Below are positions 19,462-30,548 of a DNA stretch of 64,000 nt, in pieces; position 1 is the stretch's first letter; the number at the start of each line of letters is the position of its first letter. Where the stretch lies: NCBI RefSeq assembly GCF_044324785.1, contig NZ_CP172127.1. One strand, 5' to 3'. This stretch comes from Escherichia coli. GTDB lineage: Bacteria > Pseudomonadota > Gammaproteobacteria > Enterobacterales > Enterobacteriaceae. A model generated the notes under the pieces. The model did no database searches. It was not told where the DNA came from and was given only the letters and a program-made list of their open reading frames with translations. The position numbers were made by a program, and so were the translations under genes.

Positions 19462-22400
19462 ATGAGTGAAGGACCAGGCGGGCCACAGGGAGCGACCGCA
19501 GGCGGTACGCTGGCAATGCGAATGCTGTCACAGCAGGCGATGGTCGCCAGCCAGATGAAACGGGCAGCCAACGACAAAGCCATTGCACAGATGTTGGCAT
19601 CAAAAAAGTCTGGCCCCCCCGCCGCCAGGCTGGGCGATGAAATTCAGCACAAGAGTTTTTTGGGGGCGCTGGCAGGGGCCGTGCTGGGGGCGATAGTGAC
19701 CATCGCAGAAGGTTGCCTGATTATCGCCGCCTGTGCCACCGGCCCTTATGCGCTGGTTCTGGTGCCTGCGCTGATGTATGCCAGCTATAAGGCGAGTGAT
19801 TATGTGGAGGAGAAACAGAACCAGCTTGAATCCTGGATAAACAGCTTTTGTGACAAGGACGGGGCCATCAATACTGGTTCTAAAAATGTAAACATTAACG
19901 GAAAGCCCGCTGCCAGGGCCGCCGTCACACTTCCCCCTCCTCCCCTGACTGAAGCAATACCCTCTCCACCACAGGGGGAACCTTCATGGGGGGATATTGC
20001 CACTGACCTGCTTGAATCGGCAGCGGAAAAAGCAGTGCCACTGGCGAAGGCCTGGGGGAACGCTGTTATCACCCTGACGGACAGCAATGCCAGTTTTATG
20101 GATCGCTTATGTGCAGGCACATCGCTTCTGTTTCCCTACGGCCCGGTATTAATGGAGTTTGCCACCATGGTGGGCGGGCGTGGCGAAATCAAAAAAGACG
20201 TGGATTTCCCGGAAGCCGGTGAAGACACGGCGCTCTGCGACAAGGAGACTAAACCGCCGAGGATAGCCCAGGGCAGCAGCAACGTCTTCATCAACAATCA
20301 GCCTGCCGCGCGCAAGGGCGACAAACTGGAGTGCAGCGCGGCAATCGTGGAAGGTTCGCCGGACGTCTTTATTGGGGGTGAGCAGGTCACCTATCTGGAT
20401 ATCCAGCCGGAGTTCCCGCCGTGGCAGAGAATGATCCTGGGGGGAATAACGATAGCCAGCTATCTTCTGCCGCCAGCGGGACTGCTGGGAAAAATGAAGA
20501 ATCTGGCGAGACTCGGCAAACTGGGAAACCTGCTGGGGAAAAGCGGGAAGCTGCTGGGCGCAAAACTCGGCGCATTGCTGAGCAGAACAAAAAATGCCCT
20601 GAAAAATACGTATAACGTCCTGAAAAAGTTTATCAAAGATCCGGTTGACCCGGTAACCGGCGCGTACTGCGACGAACGTACCGACTTCACCCTGGGCCAG
20701 ACCCTCCCCCTCTCCTTCACCCGTTTCCACAGTTCTGTACTGCCACTGCATGGCCTGACGGGCGTGGGCTGGAGCGACTCCTGGAGCGAATACGCCTGGG
20801 TGCGTGAACAGGGAAACCGGGTGGATATCATCAGCCAGGGAGCCACGCTGTACTTTGCCTTCGACGGAGACAGTGATACGGCGGTTAACCCGTATCACGC
20901 CCAGTATATCCTGCGCCGCCGCGACGATTACCTGGAGCTGTTCGACCGTGATGCCCTGAGCAGCCGCTTCTTTTATGACGCCTTTCCGGGAATGCGCCTG
21001 CGCCACCAGGTGACCGGCGATACCAATGATGACCGCCTGGCACACAGCCCCGGTGACCGGATGTACATGCTGGGCGGAATGAGTGACACCGCCAGCAACC
21101 GCATCACGTTTGAGCGCGACAGTCAGTACCGGATCACGGGTGTCAGTCACACCGACGGGATCCGGCTTAAACTGACGTACCACGCCAGCGGCTACCTGAA
21201 AGCCATTCACCGCACGGATAACGGCATACAGACGCTGGCGACCTACGAACAGGACGAACGGGGACGGCTGACAGAAGCGGATGCGCGGCTGGACTACCAC
21301 CTGTTTTATGAGTACGACGATGCGGACCGGATCATCCGCTGGTCCGATAACGACCAGACGTGGAGCCGTTTCACCTACGATGCACAGGGCCGGTGCGTGA
21401 CCGTCACCGGGGCGGAAGGCTATTACAACGCCACGCTGGACTATGGTGACGGCTGCACTTCCGTGACGGACGGCAAGGGCATTCACCGTTATTACTATGA
21501 TCCTGACGGCAATATCCTGCGGGAAGACGCGCCGGACGGCAGTACCACCACGTATGAATGGGATGAATTCCATCACCTGCTGGCCCGCCACTCCCCTGCC
21601 GGACGGGTGGAGAAATTTGAATACAACGCCGTACACGGTCAGTTAAGCCGTTACACGGCGGCAGACGGCGCGGTGTGGCAGTACCGCTATGATGAGCGCG
21701 GCCTGCTCAGCAACATCACCGACCCTGCCGGGCAGACGTGGACACAGCAGTGTGATGAACGCGGCCTGCCGGTAAGTCTGGTGTCGCCACAGGGCGAAGA
21801 GACCCGGCTGGCGTACACGCCACAGGGGCTGCTGTCGGGGATATTCCGCCAGGATGAACGGCGTCTGGGCATAGAGTACGACCACCACAACCGGCCGGAA
21901 ACACTCACCGACGTGATGGGCCGTGAACACCACACCGAATACAGCGGTCACGACCTGCCGGTGAAGATGCGCGGCCCCGGCGGTCAGTCAGTGCGGTTAC
22001 AGTGGCAGCAGCACCATAAACTGAGTGGCCTTGAGCGGGCAGGAACCGGCGCGGAAGGATTCCGCTACGACCGCCACGGCAACCTGCTGGCGTACACGGA
22101 CGGTAACGGCGTTGTCTGGACAATGGAATACGGCCCGTTCGATTTGCCGGTGGCGCGAACGGACGGTGAAGGCCACCGCTGGCAGTACCGCTACGATAAA
22201 GACACGCTGCAACTGACAGAAGTCATCAATCCGCAGGGTGAGTCATACCGTTATATTCTCGACAACTGTGGCCGGGTGACGGAAGAGCGTGACTGGGGCG
22301 GCGTGGTCTGGCGTTACCGCTATGACGCCGATGGCCTGTGTACCGCCAGGGTTAACGGCCTGGAGGAAACTATCCTCTACAGCCGGGACGCCGCAGGCCG

Positions 22401-24324
22401 CCTGGCAGAAGTCATCACCCCGGAAGGCAAAACGCAGTATGCGTATGACAAATCCGGCAGGCTGACGGGTATCTTCAGCCCGGACGGCACATCACAGCGC
22501 ACCGGCTACGACGAACGCGGGCGGGTGAATGTCACCACTCAGGGCAGACGGGCCATTGAGTACCACCACCCCGATGAACACACCGTTATCCGCTGTATCC
22601 TGCCACCGGAAGATGAACGCGACAGACACCCCGGTGAATCCCTGCTGAAAACCACCTACCGCTACAACGCCGCCGGAGAACTGACGGAGGTTATCCTGCC
22701 GGGGGATGAGACGCTGACGTTCAGCCGTGATGAGGCAGGACGTGAAGTGCTCCGGCACAGTAACCGGGGTTTTGCCTGTGAACAGGGCTGGAATGCAGCC
22801 GGTCAGCTTACCAGCCAGCGCGCCGGATTTTTCCCGGCGGAAGCCACATGGGGCGGACTGCTCCCCTCACTGGTGCGGGAGTACCGTTACGACAGCGCGG
22901 GCAATGTGTCGGCTGTCACCAGCCGGGAAGACTACGGACGGGAAACACGGCGGGAGTACCGGCTGGACCGGAACGGCCAGGTCACAACGGTGACAGCCTC
23001 AGGCACCGGGCTGGGCTATGGCGAAGGCGACGAGACTTATGGCTATGACAGCTGCGGCTACCTGAAGGCGCAGTCTGCGGGCAGGCACCGGATAAGTGAA
23101 GAGACTGACCAGTATGCCGGAGGCCACCGGCTGAAACAGGCCGGAAACACGCAGTATGACTATGACGCCGCAGGCCGGATGGTCAGCCGCACCAGACACC
23201 GTGACGGCTACCGCCCGGAAACAGAGCGGTTCCGGTGGGACAGCCGGGACCAGCTGACCGGGTATTGCAGCGCACAGGGGGAGCAGTGGGAATACCGCCA
23301 CGACGCCAGCGGCAGGCGGACGGAAAAACGCTGCGACCGGAAGAAAATCCGTTTTACGTACCTGTGGGACGGCGACAATATTGCGGAAATCCGGGAATAC
23401 CGCGATGATAAACTGTACAGCGTACGGCACCTGGTGTTTAACGGCTTTGAGCTGGTAAGCCAGCAGTGCAGCCGGGTACGGCAGGCGCATCCGTCCGTGG
23501 CCCCGCAGTGGGTGACGCGAACGAATTATGCGGTGAGCGACCTGACAGGCCGCCCGCTGATGCTCTTTAACAGTGAAGGTAAAACCGTCTGGCGGCCGGG
23601 ACAGACCAGCCTGTGGGGGCTGGCACTCAGCCTGCCCGCAGACACCGGCTACCCGGACCCGCGCGGGGAACTGGACCCGGAAGCCCCCCCCGGCCTGCTG
23701 TATGCGGGACAGTGGCAGGATACGGAATCGGGGCTGTGCTATAACCGGTTCCGGTATTACGAGCCGGAAACCGGAATGTACCTGGTGAGTGATCCGCTGG
23801 GGTTGCAGGGAGGTGAGCAGACTTACCGGTATGTGCCTAATCCTTGTGGGTATGTTGATCCGCTGGGGCTGGCAAAAACCAGTATTATAAAATCTTCTAC
23901 AGGCAAAATCCCACAAGGGTTAACAAAAAGCGAATTTGAGATTTTTTCAAAAAAATTAAAGGATGTATTAGCCCGAGAGGGAATCTCGACAGAGAATGTG
24001 TTTGTACATGGCAGTAGAGCCAGAGGAGATGCTGTATCAGGTGTTTCAGATATTGATATAAAAGTGATCCTTAGTGATAAAGATTTTGGTGCCTTTGCAG
24101 CAAGACGTATTGCTGAGTCCTCAGGAAGGACTCGAAATTTAATCAGGAAGGCCGTTGCTAAAAATCAAAAAATAAATTCAAGAGGAATTTCTAAAACTTT
24201 TGAATCTACTGTATGGGATGAGGTTTTCACTACCTTACCAAAAGGTGAGTTTTCAAGCATTCAAGTTTCTGTTATGACCAAAACTTCACCATTCAACACT
24301 AATCCGAGTATTATATTACCATGA
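19462..24324 (+). CDS. rhs: Rhs-family polymorphic toxin: prePAAR motif + TM helices + PAAR domain + YD-repeat shell + DPxGL boundary + 150-aa C-terminal nucleotidyltransferase-like toxin domain
   Basis: 1620-aa ORF; N-terminal AARLGDEIQH (AARxxDxxxH prePAAR) then hydrophobic helices; PAAR region GSSNVFINNQPAARKGDKLECSAAIVEGSPDVFIGG; many YD repeats; core ends VSDPLGLQGGEQTYRYVPNPCGYVDPLGL; C-terminal domain is much more AT-rich and contains VHGSRARGDAVSGVSDIDIKV. Confidence 0.9.
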   Translation: MSEGPGGPQGATAGGTLAMRMLSQQAMVASQMKRAANDKAIAQMLASKKSGPPAARLGDEIQHKSFLGALAGAVLGAIVTIAEGCLIIAACATGPYALVLVPALMYASYKASDYVEEKQNQLESWINSFCDKDGAINTGSKNVNINGKPAARAAVTLPPPPLTEAIPSPPQGEPSWGDIATDLLESAAEKAVPLAKAWGNAVITLTDSNASFMDRLCAGTSLLFPYGPVLMEFATMVGGRGEIKKDVDFPEAGEDTALCDKETKPPRIAQGSSNVFINNQPAARKGDKLECSAAIVEGSPDVFIGGEQVTYLDIQPEFPPWQRMILGGITIASYLLPPAGLLGKMKNLARLGKLGNLLGKSGKLLGAKLGALLSRTKNALKNTYNVLKKFIKDPVDPVTGAYCDERTDFTLGQTLPLSFTRFHSSVLPLHGLTGVGWSDSWSEYAWVREQGNRVDIISQGATLYFAFDGDSDTAVNPYHAQYILRRRDDYLELFDRDALSSRFFYDAFPGMRLRHQVTGDTNDDRLAHSPGDRMYMLGGMSDTASNRITFERDSQYRITGVSHTDGIRLKLTYHASGYLKAIHRTDNGIQTLATYEQDERGRLTEADARLDYHLFYEYDDADRIIRWSDNDQTWSRFTYDAQGRCVTVTGAEGYYNATLDYGDGCTSVTDGKGIHRYYYDPDGNILREDAPDGSTTTYEWDEFHHLLARHSPAGRVEKFEYNAVHGQLSRYTAADGAVWQYRYDERGLLSNITDPAGQTWTQQCDERGLPVSLVSPQGEETRLAYTPQGLLSGIFRQDERRLGIEYDHHNRPETLTDVMGREHHTEYSGHDLPVKMRGPGGQSVRLQWQQHHKLSGLERAGTGAEGFRYDRHGNLLAYTDGNGVVWTMEYGPFDLPVARTDGEGHRWQYRYDKDTLQLTEVINPQGESYRYILDNCGRVTEERDWGGVVWRYRYDADGLCTARVNGLEETILYSRDAAGRLAEVITPEGKTQYAYDKSGRLTGIFSPDGTSQRTGYDERGRVNVTTQGRRAIEYHHPDEHTVIRCILPPEDERDRHPGESLLKTTYRYNAAGELTEVILPGDETLTFSRDEAGREVLRHSNRGFACEQGWNAAGQLTSQRAGFFPAEATWGGLLPSLVREYRYDSAGNVSAVTSREDYGRETRREYRLDRNGQVTTVTASGTGLGYGEGDETYGYDSCGYLKAQSAGRHRISEETDQYAGGHRLKQAGNTQYDYDAAGRMVSRTRHRDGYRPETERFRWDSRDQLTGYCSAQGEQWEYRHDASGRRTEKRCDRKKIRFTYLWDGDNIAEIREYRDDKLYSVRHLVFNGFELVSQQCSRVRQAHPSVAPQWVTRTNYAVSDLTGRPLMLFNSEGKTVWRPGQTSLWGLALSLPADTGYPDPRGELDPEAPPGLLYAGQWQDTESGLCYNRFRYYEPETGMYLVSDPLGLQGGEQTYRYVPNPCGYVDPLGLAKTSIIKSSTGKIPQGLTKSEFEIFSKKLKDVLAREGISTENVFVHGSRARGDAVSGVSDIDIKVILSDKDFGAFAARRIAESSGRTRNLIRKAVAKNQKINSRGISKTFESTVWDEVFTTLPKGEFSSIQVSVMTKTSPFNTNPSIILP

Positions 24325-24671
24325 AGAAAAAAGATATTAGATTTGCAATATCCATTAACTCCAACTTAAGTAAGATAGAATTAATGGAAAAAATTAAAAA
24401 TATAATCCCAGGGCTTATTGAAATAACTTCCAGTGCATTAAGAGAAGAAAAAAACATGGTAGTTATTGAAGAAAATGATCTTTATGACCCTATAAAAGCA
24501 GAGGGAGCTGATGGATGGATGTATTATAAATTCATATTATCCATATTCCCATTAAAGGGAGTGGAAACAACATTAGAATATCAACGGGAATTATCTTTTC
24601 TTTTCTTAAAGAAAATAAAAGATGCGGGCCTGTTGGGTGAACTTATATGCGAGGATGATTTTCATGACTGA
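24321..24671 (+). CDS. Putative cognate immunity protein (RhsI) for the Rhs C-terminal toxin
   Basis: 116-aa AT-rich ORF whose ATG overlaps the rhs stop (ATGA); position and composition typical of Rhs immunity genes; no recognisable domain. Confidence 0.6.
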   Translation: MKKKDIRFAISINSNLSKIELMEKIKNIIPGLIEITSSALREEKNMVVIEENDLYDPIKAEGADGWMYYKFILSIFPLKGVETTLEYQRELSFLFLKKIKDAGLLGELICEDDFHD

Positions 24672-24729
24672 TGACCTCTACATATATCCTCAGTTCGTGG
24701 CTGGTATTACATGATCTGACAGGGAAAGA

Positions 24730-24883
24730 TCGTGGCGAAATCAAAAAAGACGTGGATTTCCCGGAAGCCGGTGAGGACACGGCGCTCTGCGACAAGGAGA
24801 ACAAACCACCGAGGATAGCCCAGGGCAGCAGCAACGTCTTCATCAACAATCAGCCTGCCGCACGCAAAGGGGACAAACTGCAG
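24730..24883 (+). pseudogene. Displaced 154-bp fragment of the rhs PAAR-encoding region
   Basis: Near-identical to main rhs 20177-20329 (GEIKKDVDFPEAGEDTALCDKE.KPPRIAQGSSNVFINNQPAARKGDKL); preceded by CAGGGAAAGATC at 24718-24729 and truncated by the IS left end at 24881. Confidence 0.8.
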
Positions 24884-26171
24884 GGAAAGATCACGTAACG
24901 CTGCTTTTTTGTACTAAATAATTCGCATTTTATGTTTAAAAATTGAGATATTCCTCATTACCTAAAGCTGTTTTTTATTGCTTATACATGATCAAATACT
25001 CCTTACATAATTAAGGAGAACAAAATGGAACTTAAAAAATTGATGGAACATATTTCTGTTATCCCCGATTACAGACAAGCATGGAAAGTAGAACATAAAT
25101 TGTCAGATATTCTACTGTTGACTATTTGCGCCGTCATTTGTGGTGCAGAAGGCTGGGAAGATATAGAGGATTTTGGTGAAACACATCTCGATTTTTTGAA
25201 GCAATATGGTGATTTTGAAAATGGTATTCCTGTCCACGATACCATTGCCAGAGTTGTATCCTGTATCAGTCCTGCAAAATTTCACGAGTGCTTTATTAAC
25301 TGGATGCGAGATTGCCATACTTCAGATGATAAAGACGTTATTGCAATCGATGGAAAAACACTCCGGCATTCTTATGACAAGAGTCGCCGCAGGGGAGCGA
25401 TTCATGTCATTAGTGCGTTCTCAACAATGCACAGTCTGGTCATCGGACAGATCAGGACGGATGAGAAATCTAATGAGATTACAGCTATCCCAGAACTTCT
25501 TAACATGCTGGATATTAAAGGAAAAATCATCACAACTGATGCGATGGGTTGCCAGAAAGATATTGCAGAGAAGATACAAAAACAGGGCGGTGATTATTTA
25601 TTCGCTGTAAAAGGAAATCAGGGGCGGCTTAATAAAGCCTTTGAGGAAAAATTCCCACTGAAAGAATTAAATAATCCAGAGCATGATAGTTACGCAATTA
25701 GTGAAAAGAGTCACGGCAGAGAAGAAATCCGACTTCATATTGTTTGCGATGTCCCTGATGAACTTATTGATTTCACGTTTGAATGGAAAGGGCTGAAGAA
25801 ATTATGCATAGCAGTCTCCTTTCGCTCAATAATAGCAGAGCAAAAGAAAGAGCCAGAAATGACGGTCAGATATTATATCAGTTCTGCTGATTTAAACACA
25901 GAAAAGTTCGCCACAGCAATCCGAAACCACTGGCACGTGGAGAATAAGCTGCACTGGCGTCTGGATGTGGTAATGAATGAAGACGACTGCAAAATAAGAA
26001 GAGGAAATGCAGCAGAATTATTTTCAGGGATACGGCACATCGCTATTAATATTTTGACGAATGATAAGGTATTCAAGGCAGGGTTAAGACGTAAGATACG
26101 AAAAGCAGCTATGGACAGAAACTACATGGCGTCAGTCCTTGCGGGGAGCGGGCTTTCGTAATCTTTCCCTG
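24881..26171 (+). mobile_element. ISAs1-family insertion sequence (Rhs H-repeat element), copy 1, ~1.29 kb
   Basis: Terminal inverted repeats CAGGGAAAGAT... (left) and ...ATCTTTCCCTG (right); contains a 378-aa transposase ORF; second copy at 31026-32315. Confidence 0.8.
25025..26161 (+). CDS. ISAs1-family transposase (H-repeat-associated protein, YhhI/YdcC/YbfD-like)
   Basis: 378-aa [40 protein letters not shown]...; recognised as the H-rpt protein family of Rhs elements. Confidence 0.85.
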
Positions 26172-26174
26172 GAC

Positions 26175-26396
26175 ATGACGATTATTGTTCGTTCAAATCC
26201 GAGTAAAGCCGCTATTCTTGAAGAATTTTTACATGGTACACAAGAGAAACTAGGAATAGCTGAAAAATTAGGACGTTATGGACTAGGGAGTGCAGAAACG
26301 CACGTTAAGGATTTCATGATAAGACACAAAAAAATGCTTGGGTTATCTGATGAGGATGTAGCAATACTCAAAATATTGAAAGACAAGGGGTTGTGA
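26175..26396 (+). CDS. Hypothetical small protein (73 aa from MTIIV...); possibly the remnant C-terminus of a toxin domain truncated by the IS
   Basis: ORF 26139..26396 continues in frame across the IS right end; first ATG after the IS at 26175; AT-rich; stop overlaps next ORF start (ATGA). Confidence 0.3.
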   Translation: MTIIVRSNPSKAAILEEFLHGTQEKLGIAEKLGRYGLGSAETHVKDFMIRHKKMLGLSDEDVAILKILKDKGL

Positions 26397-26683
26397 TGAA
26401 TATAATTCTGCCGATAAAAGATATATTTATTATTGCGGGAAACATAGTTTTTAGCGTTTTATACAATGAACATATTGAGTTCCCATGCCGCTGCCAATTA
26501 CTATCTTCAAATTCTGAAGTTATGCAAGAGTTATATATTGAAAAAGAGTTATTTATTAAACGCACTACAGAAAATGATTGTCGTGCTTTAGTGTTAAGAG
26601 GAACATTGGAATACTTATTTGATGAAATTATTGCTGGCGATTGTGCATTGGCCTTATTACAAAAAGAAATAAAAAAAGATTAA
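26393..26683 (+). CDS. Hypothetical AT-rich protein, candidate orphan immunity protein
   Basis: 96-aa ORF translationally coupled to the upstream ORF by ATGA overlap; very AT-rich; no recognisable domain. Confidence 0.35.
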   Translation: MMNIILPIKDIFIIAGNIVFSVLYNEHIEFPCRCQLLSSNSEVMQELYIEKELFIKRTTENDCRALVLRGTLEYLFDEIIAGDCALALLQKEIKKD

Positions 26684-26895
26684 TCCAATATGTAGAACTG
26701 GACAATACCCATCTTTTAACAATGAACTTCGTAATTTTTATCTTAGAAATAATGCTACATTATATGAGGTATATCATGAAGTAATTCATGCCAAGCAATT
26801 TGCGAAAATATTTCTATCGGAGGTGCTGATGCACCATCTAATATGAGACTTATGGATATAATGACACATACAACTCATCATAAATATTACAGGCC

Positions 26896-27264
26896 TTGGG
26901 AATGATAAATAAAATAGTGAAAAAAATGTTGGTTTCATATAGCCCTAAGAAACCGGAGTCTAGGGGCGGGGATTTTGTTATTCCGTTGTTTTTTAATGAG
27001 AAAGTTTCTTTTTTTAGCATAAAAAGTGGCAAGCCAGTGCGATATGGTCTTATGGTATTTACAGGGAAAGTAATTACCATAGATGATATTCTTAGTAAAG
27101 TTCGTTTTCCTGATGTTATGAATGAGCAAAATATTCAACCGTTAATTGACTTTATTAATAACATTAGCGATTTTAAAATAGGGGATGTTATTGAAATTGA
27201 TGATAATGGTAAATTGAAAGTTGTGCCAAAATCAGCAGGACACCCTGTGAGTAAATTGCCATGA
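26896..27264 (+). CDS. Hypothetical AT-rich protein, candidate orphan immunity protein
   Basis: 122-aa ORF immediately upstream of the orphan rhs fragment; AT-rich; no recognisable domain. Confidence 0.35.
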   Translation: MGMINKIVKKMLVSYSPKKPESRGGDFVIPLFFNEKVSFFSIKSGKPVRYGLMVFTGKVITIDDILSKVRFPDVMNEQNIQPLIDFINNISDFKIGDVIEIDDNGKLKVVPKSAGHPVSKLP

Positions 27265-27289
27265 TACTTAAGGGGCCTGATTTTCTGTT

Positions 27290-30051
27290 TTTGCCAGTGG
27301 GACGAATACCATCACCTGCTGGCGAGGCTGTCTCCGGCAGGACGGCTGGAAAAGTTTGACTATCATCTGACACTCGGTCAGTTAAGCCGTTACACGGCGG
27401 CAGACGGCGCGGAGTGGCAGTACCGCTATGATGAGCGCGGCCTGCTCAGCAACATCACCGACCCTGCCGGGCAGACGTGGACACAGCAGTGCGATGAACG
27501 CGGCCTGCCGGTGAGTCTGGTGTCGCCACAGGGCGAAGAGACCCGGCTGGCGTACACCGCTCAGGGGCTGCTGTCGGGGATATTCCGCCAGGATGAACGG
27601 CGTCTGGGCATAGAGTACGACCACCACAACCGGCCGGAAACACTCACCGACGTGATGGGCCGTGAACACCACACCGAATACAGCGGTCACGACCTGCCGG
27701 TGAAGATGCGCGGCCCCGGCGGTCAGTCAGTGCGCTTACAGTGGCAGCAGCACCATAAACTGAGCGGCATTGAACGTGCTGGAACCGGCGCGGAAGGATT
27801 TCGCTATGACCGCCACGGCAACCTGCTGGCCTGGACGGACGGCAACGGTGTTGACTGGACAATGGAATACGGCCCGTTTGATTTGCCGGTGGCGCGAACG
27901 GACGGTGAAGGCCACCGCTGGCAGTACCGCTACGATAAAGACACGCTGCAACTGACAGAAGTCATCAATCCGCAGGGCGAGTCATACCGTTATATTCTCG
28001 ACAACTGTGGGCGGGTGACGGAAGAGCATGACTGGGGCGGCGTGGTCTGGCGTTACCGCTATGACGCCGATGGTCTGTGTACCGCCAGGGTTAACGGCCT
28101 GGAGGAAACCATCCTCTACAGCCGGGACGCCGCAGGCCGCCTGGCAGAAGTCATCACCCCGGAAGGGAAAACGCAGTATGCGTATGACAAATCCGGCAGG
28201 CTGACGGGTATCTTCAGCCCGGACGGCACATCACAGCGCACCGGCTACGACGAACGCGGGCGGGTGAATGTCACCACTCAGGGCCGACGGGCCATTGAAT
28301 ACCACCACCCCGATGAACACACCGTCATCCGCTGTATCCTGCCACCGGAAGATGAACGCGACAGACACCCCGGTGAATCCCTGCTGAAAACCACCTACCG
28401 CTACAACGCCGCCGGAGAACTGACGGAGGTTATCCTGCCGGGGGATGAGACGCTGACGTTCAGCCGTGATGAGGCAGGACGTGAAGTGCTCCGGCACAGT
28501 AACCGGGGTTTTGCCTGTGAACAGGGCTGGAATGCAGCCGGTCAGCTTACCAGCCAGCGCGCCGGATTTTTCCCGGCGGAAGCCACATGGGGCGGACTGC
28601 TCCCCTCACTGGTGCGGGAGTACCGTTACGACAGCGCGGGCAATGTGTCGGCTGTCACCAGCCGGGAAGACTACGGACGGGAAACACGGCGGGAGTACCG
28701 GCTGGACCGGAACGGCCAGGTCACAACGGTGACAGCCTCAGGCACCGGGCTGGGCTATGGCGAAGGCGACGAGACTTATGGCTATGACAGCTGCGGCTAC
28801 CTGAAGGCGCAGTCTGCGGGCAGGCACCGGATAAGTGAAGAGACTGACCAGTATGCCGGAGGCCACCGGCTGAAACAGGCCGGAAACACGCAGTATGACT
28901 ATGACGCCGCAGGCCGGATGGTCAGCCGCACCAGACACCGTGACGGCTACCGCCCGGAAACAGAGCGGTTCCGGTGGGACAGCCGGGACCAGCTGACCGG
29001 GTATTGCAGCGCACAGGGGGAGCAGTGGGAATACCGCCACGACGCCAGCGGCAGGCGGACGGAAAAACGCTGCGACCGGAAGAAAATCCGTTTTACGTAC
29101 CTGTGGGACGGCGACAATATTGCGGAAATCCGGGAATACCGCGATGATAAACTGTACAGCGTACGGCACCTGGTGTTTAACGGCTTTGAGCTGGTAAGCC
29201 AGCAGTGCAGCCGGGTACGGCAGGCGCATCCGTCCGTGGCCCCGCAGTGGGTGACGCGAACGAATTATGCGGTGAGCGACCTGACAGGCCGCCCGCTGAT
29301 GCTCTTTAACAGTGAAGGTAAAACCGTCTGGCGGCCGGGACAGACCAGCCTGTGGGGGCTGGCACTCAGCCTGCCCGCAGACACCGACTACCCGGACCCG
29401 CGCGGGGAGCTGGACCCGGAAGCCGACCCCGGCCTGCTGTATGCAGGACAGTGGCAGGATACGGAATCAGGGCTGTGCTATAACCGGTTCCGGTACTACG
29501 AGCCGGAAACCGGAATGTACCTGGTGAGTGATCCGCTGGGGTTGCAGGGGGGTGAGCAGACTTACCGGTATGTGCCGAATCCTTTAAGATATAAAGATTT
29601 CTATGGGCTTAGTAAGAGTTCAATAATAACGAGAGGAAAGAATGCTGGTCATGGCTATGCAGCCAGCGTTACACCTGGAGGCAAAGGTACGGTGTTGGCT
29701 GGTCACGGAGGATCAAAATTTGGCGATAAAATGATTATACCAGAAGGCGTATCGATAACGATGCCGAGAGATGGTATTAAAATATCAGATATGACTGGAA
29801 AATTACTGGAATCTGGTAATGTGGATGATATAATTAAAGCTGCAAGTAATAATCCTCGTGTAGCTAGCGATCTTGAAGGTTGGGTTACTTATTTGCCCGG
29901 CACTGAAATCCCTGATTATATTTTAAAACCACCCACCAATCTTAACATACTGGAAAATTCAGTAACGGTGAACACTTCAACTTATTTATCTCAAATGGTA
30001 AATGCTGGTCAAGGTAATGTAATCTGGGCTGCATGCACCGAATTTTTTTAA
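27290..30051 (+). pseudogene. rhs: Orphan rhs module: 3' part of the rhs core (no in-frame start; reading frame opens at 27255) fused to an alternative ~155-aa C-terminal toxin domain
   Basis: Homology to main rhs begins ~27290 (main 21565) and is near-identical from 27385; frame has a stop at 27252-27254 and no ATG until 27511; core ends ...DPLGLQGGEQTYRYVPNP then diverges (LRYKDFYGLSKSSIITRGKNAGHGYAAS...). Confidence 0.8.
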
Positions 30052-30065
30052 CGCGGGGTAATCGT

Positions 30066-30548
30066 ATGTATTTTAAAGATGATACTGACTATACATATTT
30101 CCTTCCTAATGAATATTTTTTACACGGGGTGAAAAATGTGGGCTGGATAGACAGAGAACACCCCTTCACAAAAGGGATTAGTGACGCTGAATTTATTGAA
30201 AAGTTAAAAGCAATAATTCTAACAGAGAATGAAGCAACTTGTTTTTCAGTTAATAAAATAAGAGGATTTCACAAATGTAATTTTTGCAATAGTGAAATGA
30301 TAACAATAACCGATGGAAGAAAAAAAGGATACCTTGGCATGAGTGAAATATGGATTCCATCCATCCACCATAATGAGTATTACGCGTTTCCTTCATTAAT
30401 TTTCCATTATATAACATCTCACATGTATAGACCACCAGAGGACTTTATTGTATCTGTTTTAAACTTGAATTTAAGCGAGAGTTTTTGCGCTCAAAACATA
30501 TATGACAATAAAATTAAGGAATTAAAAATAGACTTCTGGTTTCGTTAA
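30066..30548 (+). CDS. Putative immunity protein for the orphan Rhs C-terminal domain
   Basis: ATG at 30066, 15 bp after the orphan rhs stop; 160 aa, AT-rich, contains CNFCN and His-rich segment; no recognisable domain. Confidence 0.5.
   Translation: MYFKDDTDYTYFLPNEYFLHGVKNVGWIDREHPFTKGISDAEFIEKLKAIILTENEATCFSVNKIRGFHKCNFCNSEMITITDGRKKGYLGMSEIWIPSIHHNEYYAFPSLIFHYITSHMYRPPEDFIVSVLNLNLSESFCAQNIYDNKIKELKIDFWFR

Follow-up and report, generated by a model that had tools for sequence, protein, structure and literature searches.

Layered remnants of Rhs C-terminal toxins and two intact predicted immunity genes in an rhs island of Escherichia coli N3

The stretch of Escherichia coli DNA analysed here (64,000 nucleotides of contig NZ_CP172127.1, referred to as the window) matches the E. 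coli strain N3 chromosome (NZ_CP031609.1) at 100% identity and carries a vgrG–PAAR-rhs island linked to type VI secretion (the T6SS) and adjoining nfrBA. Our subject is an AT-rich block at positions 26172-27289 of the window, lying between an insertion sequence (IS) and an orphan rhs fragment. This block very probably consists of stacked relics of successive replacements of Rhs C-terminal toxins, in which two intact open reading frames (ORFs), ORF2 and ORF3, would still work as orphan immunity genes. In the order given by the Prokaryotic Genome Annotation Pipeline (PGAP), the upstream part of the island holds vgrG, a DcrB-related gene and the main PAAR-Rhs gene (19462-24324) with its AT-rich C-terminal tip and a small gene. 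These are followed by a PAAR-domain fragment, an ISAs1-family transposase (25025-26161) and the studied block, and then by an orphan rhs fragment that has a tip and a small gene of its own, a further rhs fragment, a copy of ISEc1 and nfrB/nfrA.

The GC content of the block is 0.329 against 0.604 and 0.617 in the flanking rhs cores, and it is the lowest-GC 1118-bp stretch anywhere in the 64-kb window. An earlier interpretation made from the letters alone (the sequence-only reading) had placed the start of the block at 26172 and described it as markedly AT-rich relative to the rhs core, with three ORFs between the IS and the orphan rhs; all of this was confirmed. The ORFs lie on the + strand at 26139..26396, 26393..26683 and 26896..27264 (85, 96 and 122 aa in a mechanical ORF list), and PGAP calls shorter versions of ORF1 (26175..26396) and ORF3 (26902..27264, 120 aa). 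As a description of the whole block, however, three ORFs were too few, since two toxin fragments between ORF2 and ORF3, of the Tox-MPTase4 and HNH families, had been missed, and ORF3 belongs to a separate cassette. The pieces and their flanks are as follows.

24731..24880, + strand: piece of an rhs gene with part of the PAAR domain, bordering the IS on its left; similar to the main Rhs in the PAAR region; in PGAP 'PAAR domain-containing protein, incomplete'.
24881..26171, + strand: ISAs1-family IS (H-repeat type; family label from PGAP) with 25-nt inverted repeats and a transposase at 25025-26161.
26172..26396, + strand: ORF1, 3' remnant of toxin-1 (residues ~60-133 of 133); 100% identical by tblastn to the domain of strain S51.
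26393..26683, + strand: ORF2, intact predicted toxin-1 immunity gene, orphan in N3; overlaps the toxin stop in S51, and small genes follow toxin-1 homologues.
26709..26810, + strand: 34 codons from the interior of a Tox-MPTase4 (zincin, HEVIH) Rhs toxin gene; PGAP pseudogene; 79% identical to an orphan Rhs domain of S51.
26809..26905, + strand: 3' end (31 codons and the stop) of the sequence for an HNH-type Rhs C-terminal toxin; identity of 100% with residues 111-141 in the S792 domain.
26902..27264, + strand: ORF3, intact predicted HNH-toxin immunity gene, orphan in N3; ATGA overlap with the toxin stop; paired likewise in S792, PS2C and loci L011/L012.
27290..30051, + strand: rhs core fragment on the right flank, an orphan with a C-terminal toxin of its own; GC climbs to about 0.62, and rhs-core sequence (WDEYHHLLARLSPAGR…) starts at about 27290.

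ORF1 was found by tblastn to be 100% identical, over 74-75 codons, to residues 59-133 of the C-terminal toxin domain (toxin-1) of an Rhs protein in E. coli S51. In a three-way DNA alignment of N3, S51 and E. coli C, the toxin homology begins at 26172, directly past the IS end, from GACATGACG. The frame of ORF1 does run across the right end of the IS, as had been pointed out from the letters, and stays open for ~11 codons; that stretch is IS sequence and not toxin, and its being open is coincidental. The proposal that ORF1 is the C-terminal remnant of a toxin cut by the insertion was right as to the remnant, but the cut was not made by a simple insertion, as described below. By this homology, ORF1 is the C-terminal 56% of the toxin. 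It keeps an EEFLH motif (26220-26234) and cannot be an active toxin, since residues 1-58 (most of the beta-sheet) and the carrier protein are gone.

The intact form of toxin-1 was recovered from other E. coli. Window positions 26172-26784 are 99% identical to a segment present in >500 complete E. coli genomes, and in E. coli C the matching segment comes directly after the main Rhs gene in the corresponding vgrG island. The frame of this Rhs gene ends 35 codons past DPLGL and an 86-aa 'hypothetical protein' begins just downstream in another frame; joined, the two frames give a 133-aa sequence. A frameshift at the A-run just before the stop (GGAAAAGAC) was considered and rejected, because the 15 residues reconstructed in this way align badly with homologues. 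The true frameshift is a G5-to-G4 change 60 nt upstream of the A-run, and with an extra G, as in CTCATGGGG(G)TTGAG, the sequence again agrees perfectly with the family consensus. With a junction-specific 35-nt query, the five-G allele was found in 20 genomes and the four-G allele in 538. The site (L002 7870-7885 in E. coli C, L004 6001-6035 in S51) is absent from the window. S51 has the five-G allele and encodes an unbroken 1603-aa Rhs protein ending in …KILKDKGL, in which the toxin domain (NKGASL…KDKGL, then the stop codon) directly follows the Rhs cleavage motif PxxxxDPxGL (…YVPNPLRWIDPLGL). The window itself retains only the 3' ends of toxin-1 and of the HNH toxin described below. The 86-aa product, WP_000889443.1, is the PGAP call for the downstream piece in the 538 frameshifted genomes and is a frameshift product of the Rhs toxin; a hypothetical protein of >500 E. 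coli genomes can in this way be reassigned as an artefact of a frameshifted Rhs toxin. Compared with it, the N3 remnant has had a further 12 codons removed by the IS.

Toxin-1 belongs to a widespread group of domains. With the domain as first reconstructed across the frameshift, homologues from Agaribacter, Bordetella, Myxococcales and metagenomes show 50-65% identity over 93-99% of the 133 residues, and identity reaches 70% against the intact S51 domain. Homologues in other phyla cover the full domain of 125-130 aa, including the part upstream of the 86-aa start. As we read the clade, its members come from Proteobacteria, Bacteroidota, Fusobacteriota and Firmicutes, and their carriers include Rhs, pyocin-S, PAAR-like and WXG100 proteins. 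No match to toxin-1 was found in Pfam, scanned with a mis-placed reconstruction that differs from S51 by 16 residues upstream of the motifs, or in NCBIfam, PADLOC and PHROGs, scanned with the intact S51 domain; the precomputed Pfam entry for the homologues is likewise '-'. Two proteins of Lysobacter/Marilutibacter and Xanthomonas (P0081 and P0087) were observed to be C-terminal-only versions of toxin-1 of ~85 aa, starting MQAEANV… at the same alignment position as the 86-aa product, which suggests recurrent truncation or frameshift of toxin-1 in other genera.

An AlphaFold2 model of toxin-1 built from a 60-sequence alignment reached a mean predicted local distance difference test score (pLDDT) of 88 and a predicted template modelling score (pTM) of 0.81, and its beta-sheet needs residues 20-65. 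Against the PDB, toxin-1 gave neither a sequence match nor a Foldseek match. Against AFDB50, Foldseek returned homologues located C-terminally in S-type pyocin, RHS repeat, DUF4280 (PAAR-like), WXG100, LysM and pre-toxin TG proteins, all of them classic carriers of polymorphic toxins, together with Tox-MPTase4, phage head-morphogenesis/polyvalent and ImmA/IrrE proteins at E ~5e-5 and a template modelling score of ~0.7. The model combines a beta-sheet, an active-site helix and a ligand helix and is structurally similar to zincins, so that toxin-1 is predicted to have a zincin fold. The long central helix carries an invariant LEEFLHGTQ, which aligns in register with YHEVIHAKQ from a Tox-MPTase4 toxin of E. 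coli, and the register extends to R-x-N upstream and E-x-H-V downstream, although this hhalign match, made to a single MPTase4 sequence, is weak (E 0.014). E76 and E77 are invariant and H80 is conserved in at least 90% of the 60 toxin-1 sequences.

Tox-MPTase4 (PF15640) is defined by the signature F[DN], [RK] and HExxH (Zhang et al. 2012, PMC3482391). Toxin-1 resembles it in its modelled zincin fold, in R-x-N, xExxH-x-x-Q and E-x-H-V in register, and in the kinds of carrier, but it is undetected by the Pfam and NCBIfam models, has EEFLH in place of HEVIH, with an invariant Glu where HExxH has its first His, and is paired with an unrelated immunity gene. On the model, toxin-1 is probably a distant sister of Tox-MPTase4, the relationship being mainly structural. 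We infer for it a possible peptidase activity; if the ligand set is indeed altered, this would imply a different metal or a non-canonical chemistry. No mention of an EExxH zincin motif, or of the accessions of the proteins studied here, was found in the literature.

In Rhs cassettes a small immunity gene lies immediately downstream of the toxin and usually overlaps its stop codon. This order was found for both intact ORFs, with a TGATG or GTGA overlap at ORF2 and an ATGA overlap at ORF3, and it recurs in loci L007-L012. At the ORF1/ORF2 junction (TTGTGATGAAT) the overlap is GTGA if ORF2 starts at GTG and TGATG if it starts at ATG, and not the ATGA claimed by the sequence-only reading; a literal ATGA occurs at the junction of the HNH remnant and ORF3. 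In S51 the final base of the intact toxin's stop codon is the first base of ORF2. In each of four unrelated contigs, a gene of 87-96 codons begins within a few bases of the stop of a toxin-1 homologue (L007 478-741, L008 3592-3873, L009 4970-5260, L010 5819-6091). Two of these loci are visibly toxin/immunity arrays, one with Tsi6 and EndoU and the other with DUF4926. The four proteins are clearly interrelated and colinear with ORF2, and a profile-profile comparison (hhalign) matched ORF2 to them over 83 columns with a probability of 82% and E 1.1e-5.

ORF2 is full length in N3, and its relatives, which are 97-99% identical, come almost all from E. coli. It has no match in Pfam, NCBIfam, PADLOC or PHROGs. 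Its position, its size and this weak but consistent homology argue for ORF2 being the cognate immunity gene of toxin-1, a prediction from sequence and gene order. About 550 genomes keep ORF2 intact, including those with a frameshifted toxin. In N3, ORF1 and ORF2 occur at one place only, and the strain is not among the 20 genomes with the intact G5 toxin. E. coli W444 (L003 2076-2465) has one additional A in the poly-A run of the ORF2 3' end, and the product is lengthened to 129 aa instead of 95-96; a homopolymer mutation and a sequencing error are both conceivable.

Two scraps of toxin genes lie between ORF2 and ORF3. The first is annotated by PGAP as a 'zincin-like metallopeptidase toxin' pseudogene at 26712-26810 and translates as …PSFNNELRNFYLRNNATLYEVYHEVIHAKQFAKI, with HEVIH present. 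An orphan Rhs protein of S51 shares 79% identity with it over residues 64-97 of the C-terminal domain, and that domain matches Pfam PF15640 at 8e-34, which makes the scrap a true member of Tox-MPTase4. S51 and E. coli C match the scrap only to YHEV and then diverge, so N3 keeps 24 nt more of the older MPTase4 tip. Past this point, E. coli C (L002 8613-9280) and S51 (L004 6754-7420) have small AT-rich ORFs, MGDNGIVLVIRSS… and MITKSSILIEYKDK…, which may be further toxin or immunity relics.

At about 26809 both the frame and the family switch, to the end of an HNH toxin. This second scrap, …ISIGGADAPSNMRLMDIMTHTTHHKYYRPWE and its stop, lacks the HVDH catalytic part. Its end, …SIGGADAPSNMRLMDIMTHTTHHKYYRPWE and the stop, matches at 100% identity the end of an Rhs C-terminal domain whose intact form occurs in DETEC-S792 (S792) and PS2Canimalfeces12 (PS2C), and the DNA homology of N3 to these strains starts at about 26809. 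The two scraps are joined at a 2-bp TA microhomology, which indicates illegitimate recombination at the joint.

In S792 the intact HNH toxin domain, ATCPII…RPWE and its stop, follows the Rhs cleavage motif (…YVPNPNEYIDPLGL). It shows HVDHIVP…N…H…HH, and the window holds only the part after DH. Pfam matches to the intact toxin are marginal for HNH (i-E 1.8e-3) and stand at 0.037 for HNH_5, and PGAP labels the toxin gene of PS2C 'HNH endonuclease signature motif containing protein'. Like HNH/EndoVII toxins, the intact homologue has the HVDH…N…H…HH spacing, is placed after the DPxGL of an Rhs protein and overlaps an immunity gene; unlike them, it has only the marginal HNH match and was assigned to no named Tox-HNH subfamily, and the window keeps only its last 31 residues.

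The ATG of ORF3 overlaps the TGA of the HNH toxin (ATGA, 26902-26905). The same arrangement is present in S792, and in PS2C an ORF3 homologue again follows the HNH toxin, where a 1-nt insertion shortens the annotated gene. ORF3 is carried by 3 of 5426 complete genomes, and the junction of ORF3 with the orphan rhs at about 27290 is common to all three E. coli carriers (N3, S792 and PS2C). Its closest relative, with 49% identity, is encoded behind an orphan Rhs-type domain sharing 75% identity with the S792 HNH toxin (L011/L012), in a locus downstream of a full PAAR-Rhs gene and its own immunity gene. An immunity partner is expected to diverge faster than its toxin, and the L011/L012 pairing fits this. 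We predict from these pairings that ORF3 is the immunity gene of the HNH toxin. As with ORF2, this agrees with the sequence-only reading, which had taken the ORFs for candidate uncharacterised immunity proteins or toxin fragments: ORF1 is a toxin remnant, ORF2 and ORF3 stand in the immunity position of intact toxins, and homologues do occur downstream of Rhs toxins elsewhere, ORF2-like genes in four contigs and ORF3 in S792, PS2C and L011/L012. It had recognised no domain in the three ORFs, and our scans of Pfam, NCBIfam, PADLOC and PHROGs were empty as well.

A word-indexed search gave one cluster for the ORF3 family, and exhaustive phmmer gave 120 representatives. Members are ~125 aa long and share conserved TKKxLV, DFLVP, KSGK…YG.VVFTG and FKIGNV. 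Neither ORF3 nor its family has a relative in Pfam, NCBIfam, PADLOC, PHROGs or the PDB; the AlphaFold2 model of ORF3 is confident (pLDDT 89.7). No recognisable toxin adjoins the distant relatives P0151 and P0156, so that support for an immunity role is confined to the close clade. The HNH 3' end and ORF3 have a single place in N3. One 2551-aa protein, P0149, was observed to repeat an ORF3-like beta subdomain, with 10 separate stretches that resemble residues 21-67 of ORF3. In PS2C (L005 7488-10491), the orphan rhs after ORF3 ends with a frameshifted toxin-1 tip and ORF2; the two cassettes of N3 thus occur there in the opposite order.

Taking both cassettes together, we would put at even odds a broader proposal, that toxin-1 represents an unannotated polymorphic-toxin clade derived from the Tox-MPTase4/zincin fold, with EExxH…E-x-H and its own ~90-aa immunity family including ORF2, and that the ORF3 family is a new immunity family for the HNH toxin clade. 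What would be new is a probable, so far unannotated zincin-derived EExxH toxin family and two unannotated immunity families.

The left boundary of the block is set by the IS. Its inverted repeats at 24881-24905 and 26147-26171 are 25 nt long and 80% complementary, with terminal sequences CAGGGAAAGATCA… on the left and …ATCTTTCCCTG on the right. Three copies (the one studied here, a second in the window and one in E. coli C) diverge exactly outside both terminal sequences. Since the inverted repeats and the three-copy alignment agree, the right end of the IS is 26171 and the block starts at 26172. The presence of a transposase of the family (PGAP label) between terminal inverted repeats assigns the element to ISAs1. 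To its left lies a 150-nt piece of an rhs PAAR region, and to its right the middle of a toxin; the ORF at 24671..24898 includes RGEIKKDVDFPEAGEDTALCDKENKPPRIAQGSSNVFINNQPAARKGDKL, which matches the PAAR region of the main Rhs. The first base of this 75-codon ORF is also the final base of the main Rhs immunity gene's stop codon, and the PAAR piece stops exactly at the left repeat of the IS. The PAAR fragment abutting the IS is evidence that the 5' region of an rhs gene underwent an older rearrangement.

No target-site duplication or other direct repeat was found at the IS copy 24881-26171, and 80-nt probes of its two junctions had no match outside N3 among the 5426 genomes. A simple insertion of the IS into toxin-1 was rejected on these grounds, namely the PAAR left flank, the lack of a target-site duplication and the uniqueness of both junctions to N3. 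The 5' half of toxin-1 was removed, together with its rhs gene, by a strain-specific rearrangement associated with the IS; the path of this rearrangement could have been a deletion or a recombination between two IS copies.

The identities and boundaries of the pieces, and the toxin/immunity order in strains with intact genes, are direct observations. From them the block can be read as two cassettes, the first made of the 3' 74-75 codons of what is predicted to be a zincin-fold toxin (toxin-1) with intact ORF2, and the second of the last 31 codons of a putative HNH nuclease toxin with intact ORF3, the 34-codon Tox-MPTase4 scrap between them being fused to the HNH scrap. The 5' half of toxin-1 and its parent rhs gene would have been lost in the ISAs1-associated rearrangement, and the toxin scraps would be non-functional by-products of the displacement of C-terminal tips. 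No toxin piece can be active, as each lacks the delivery domain and part of the catalytic core. ORF2 and ORF3 are present in one copy each, and BLAST found neither toxin-1 nor the HNH toxin at full length in N3, though divergent alleles below BLAST sensitivity could escape; the two are orphan immunity genes because N3 has neither toxin in full. Their products may bind and neutralise toxin-1 and the HNH toxin when these are injected through the T6SS by rival E. coli, and their transcription may come by read-through from the IS or the upstream rhs operon.

The locus is of an ordinary and well-understood kind and would not surprise a specialist. Arrays of displaced rhs tips (Jackson et al. 2009, PMC2935791) and orphan rhs-CT/rhsI modules (Poole et al. 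2011, PMC3150448) share with it an AT-rich tip and a small immunity gene 3' of a GC-rich core, old tips pushed downstream and interspersed IS elements. Unlike typical orphan Rhs tips, the toxins in N3 are eroded to 75, 34 and 31 codons without core homology, and one boundary is an ISAs1-family end and not a core-recombination joint. Orphan immunity arrays have been described at T6SS effector loci in the auxiliary clusters of Vibrio cholerae, which are not Rhs loci (Kirchberger et al. 2017, PMC5361080). As there, the immunity genes in N3 have been kept after loss of the effector, with no cognate toxin in the genome, and by this analogy ORF2 and ORF3 might confer protection. What is new is the exact anatomy, with five pieces from three toxin families. 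For annotation, five pieces that were 'hypothetical' or unannotated can now be labelled as three toxin pseudogene fragments and two orphan immunity genes, and the block serves as a worked example of how rhs loci pile up layered relics yet keep their immunity genes.

Several findings weigh against a working role for ORF2 and ORF3. A promoter scan was at the level of chance (6 sites against 5.9 expected from shuffled sequence) and no terminator was found, so expression would depend on read-through. Toxin-1 is frameshifted in 538 of 558 E. coli carriers, so the threat met by ORF2 may be rare and selection for it weak. ORF2 has two amino-acid changes relative to the common allele WP_001021473.1, and its similarity to the proteins of L007-L010 amounts to 18-28% identity, with an hhalign probability of 82%, profile against profile.

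An alternative is that, with the same identities for all pieces, the whole block is inert debris, in which ORF2 and ORF3 are silent, give no protection and are intact only through a recent rearrangement. We consider this unlikely, although it is the strongest of the alternatives. Besides the promoter and terminator signals, which are not above chance, it is favoured by a divergence of ~1% from other strains that looks uniform over coding and non-coding positions; both IS junctions are unique to N3, implying a recent event, and ORF3 is found in so few genomes. It fits poorly with both immunity ORFs being full length where all three adjoining toxin pieces are truncated, and with ORF2 staying intact in about 550 genomes despite a frameshifted toxin; moreover, all genes are co-oriented with the IS transposase and the upstream rhs operon, so that read-through is possible.

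Layered relics with conserved immunity genes also account better for ORF1 than does an autonomous small gene such as the 86-aa WP_000889443.1, which we think very improbable. PGAP does annotate this coding sequence in about 540 genomes, and products of ~85 aa are annotated in Lysobacter/Marilutibacter and Xanthomonas. The 86-aa ORF nevertheless arises from the single G5-to-G4 frameshift, 20 genomes have the uninterrupted Rhs, the homologues in other phyla span the full domain, the modelled beta-sheet needs residues 20-65, and in N3 the IS takes another 12 codons. Slightly less probable still is a silent reservoir, which homologous recombination could join to the main rhs gene again, so that the deployed toxin is switched as in the orphan rhs modules of Salmonella. 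Orphan Rhs toxin modules can be activated by recombination (PMC3150448, PMC7043789), and the downstream orphan rhs at 27290-30051 retains core homology; within 26172-27289, however, no toxin piece is complete or preceded by an rhs core, ORF1 abutting the IS and the 31-codon HNH scrap abutting the MPTase4 scrap. That the ORFs are chance open frames in AT-rich intergenic DNA, which has few GC-rich stop-free constraints, is practically refuted by the strong homologues and conserved columns of all three, by the confident AlphaFold2 models (pLDDT 88 for toxin-1, 89.7 for ORF3) and by a gene order kept in distant taxa, even though none of the three matches Pfam, NCBIfam, PADLOC or PHROGs.

Two further observations concern the neighbouring rhs genes. 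At 29600-30548 the orphan rhs has an AT-rich C-terminal domain, called 'putative adhesin' by PGAP, followed by a 171-aa ORF, and the two presumably form a further toxin/immunity pair. In the main Rhs gene (19462-24324) PGAP marks a frameshift and splits off a 'nucleotidyltransferase domain' coding sequence; in the mechanical ORF list the same gene is a single unbroken PAAR-Rhs ORF of 1620 aa that ends in the nucleotidyltransferase domain.

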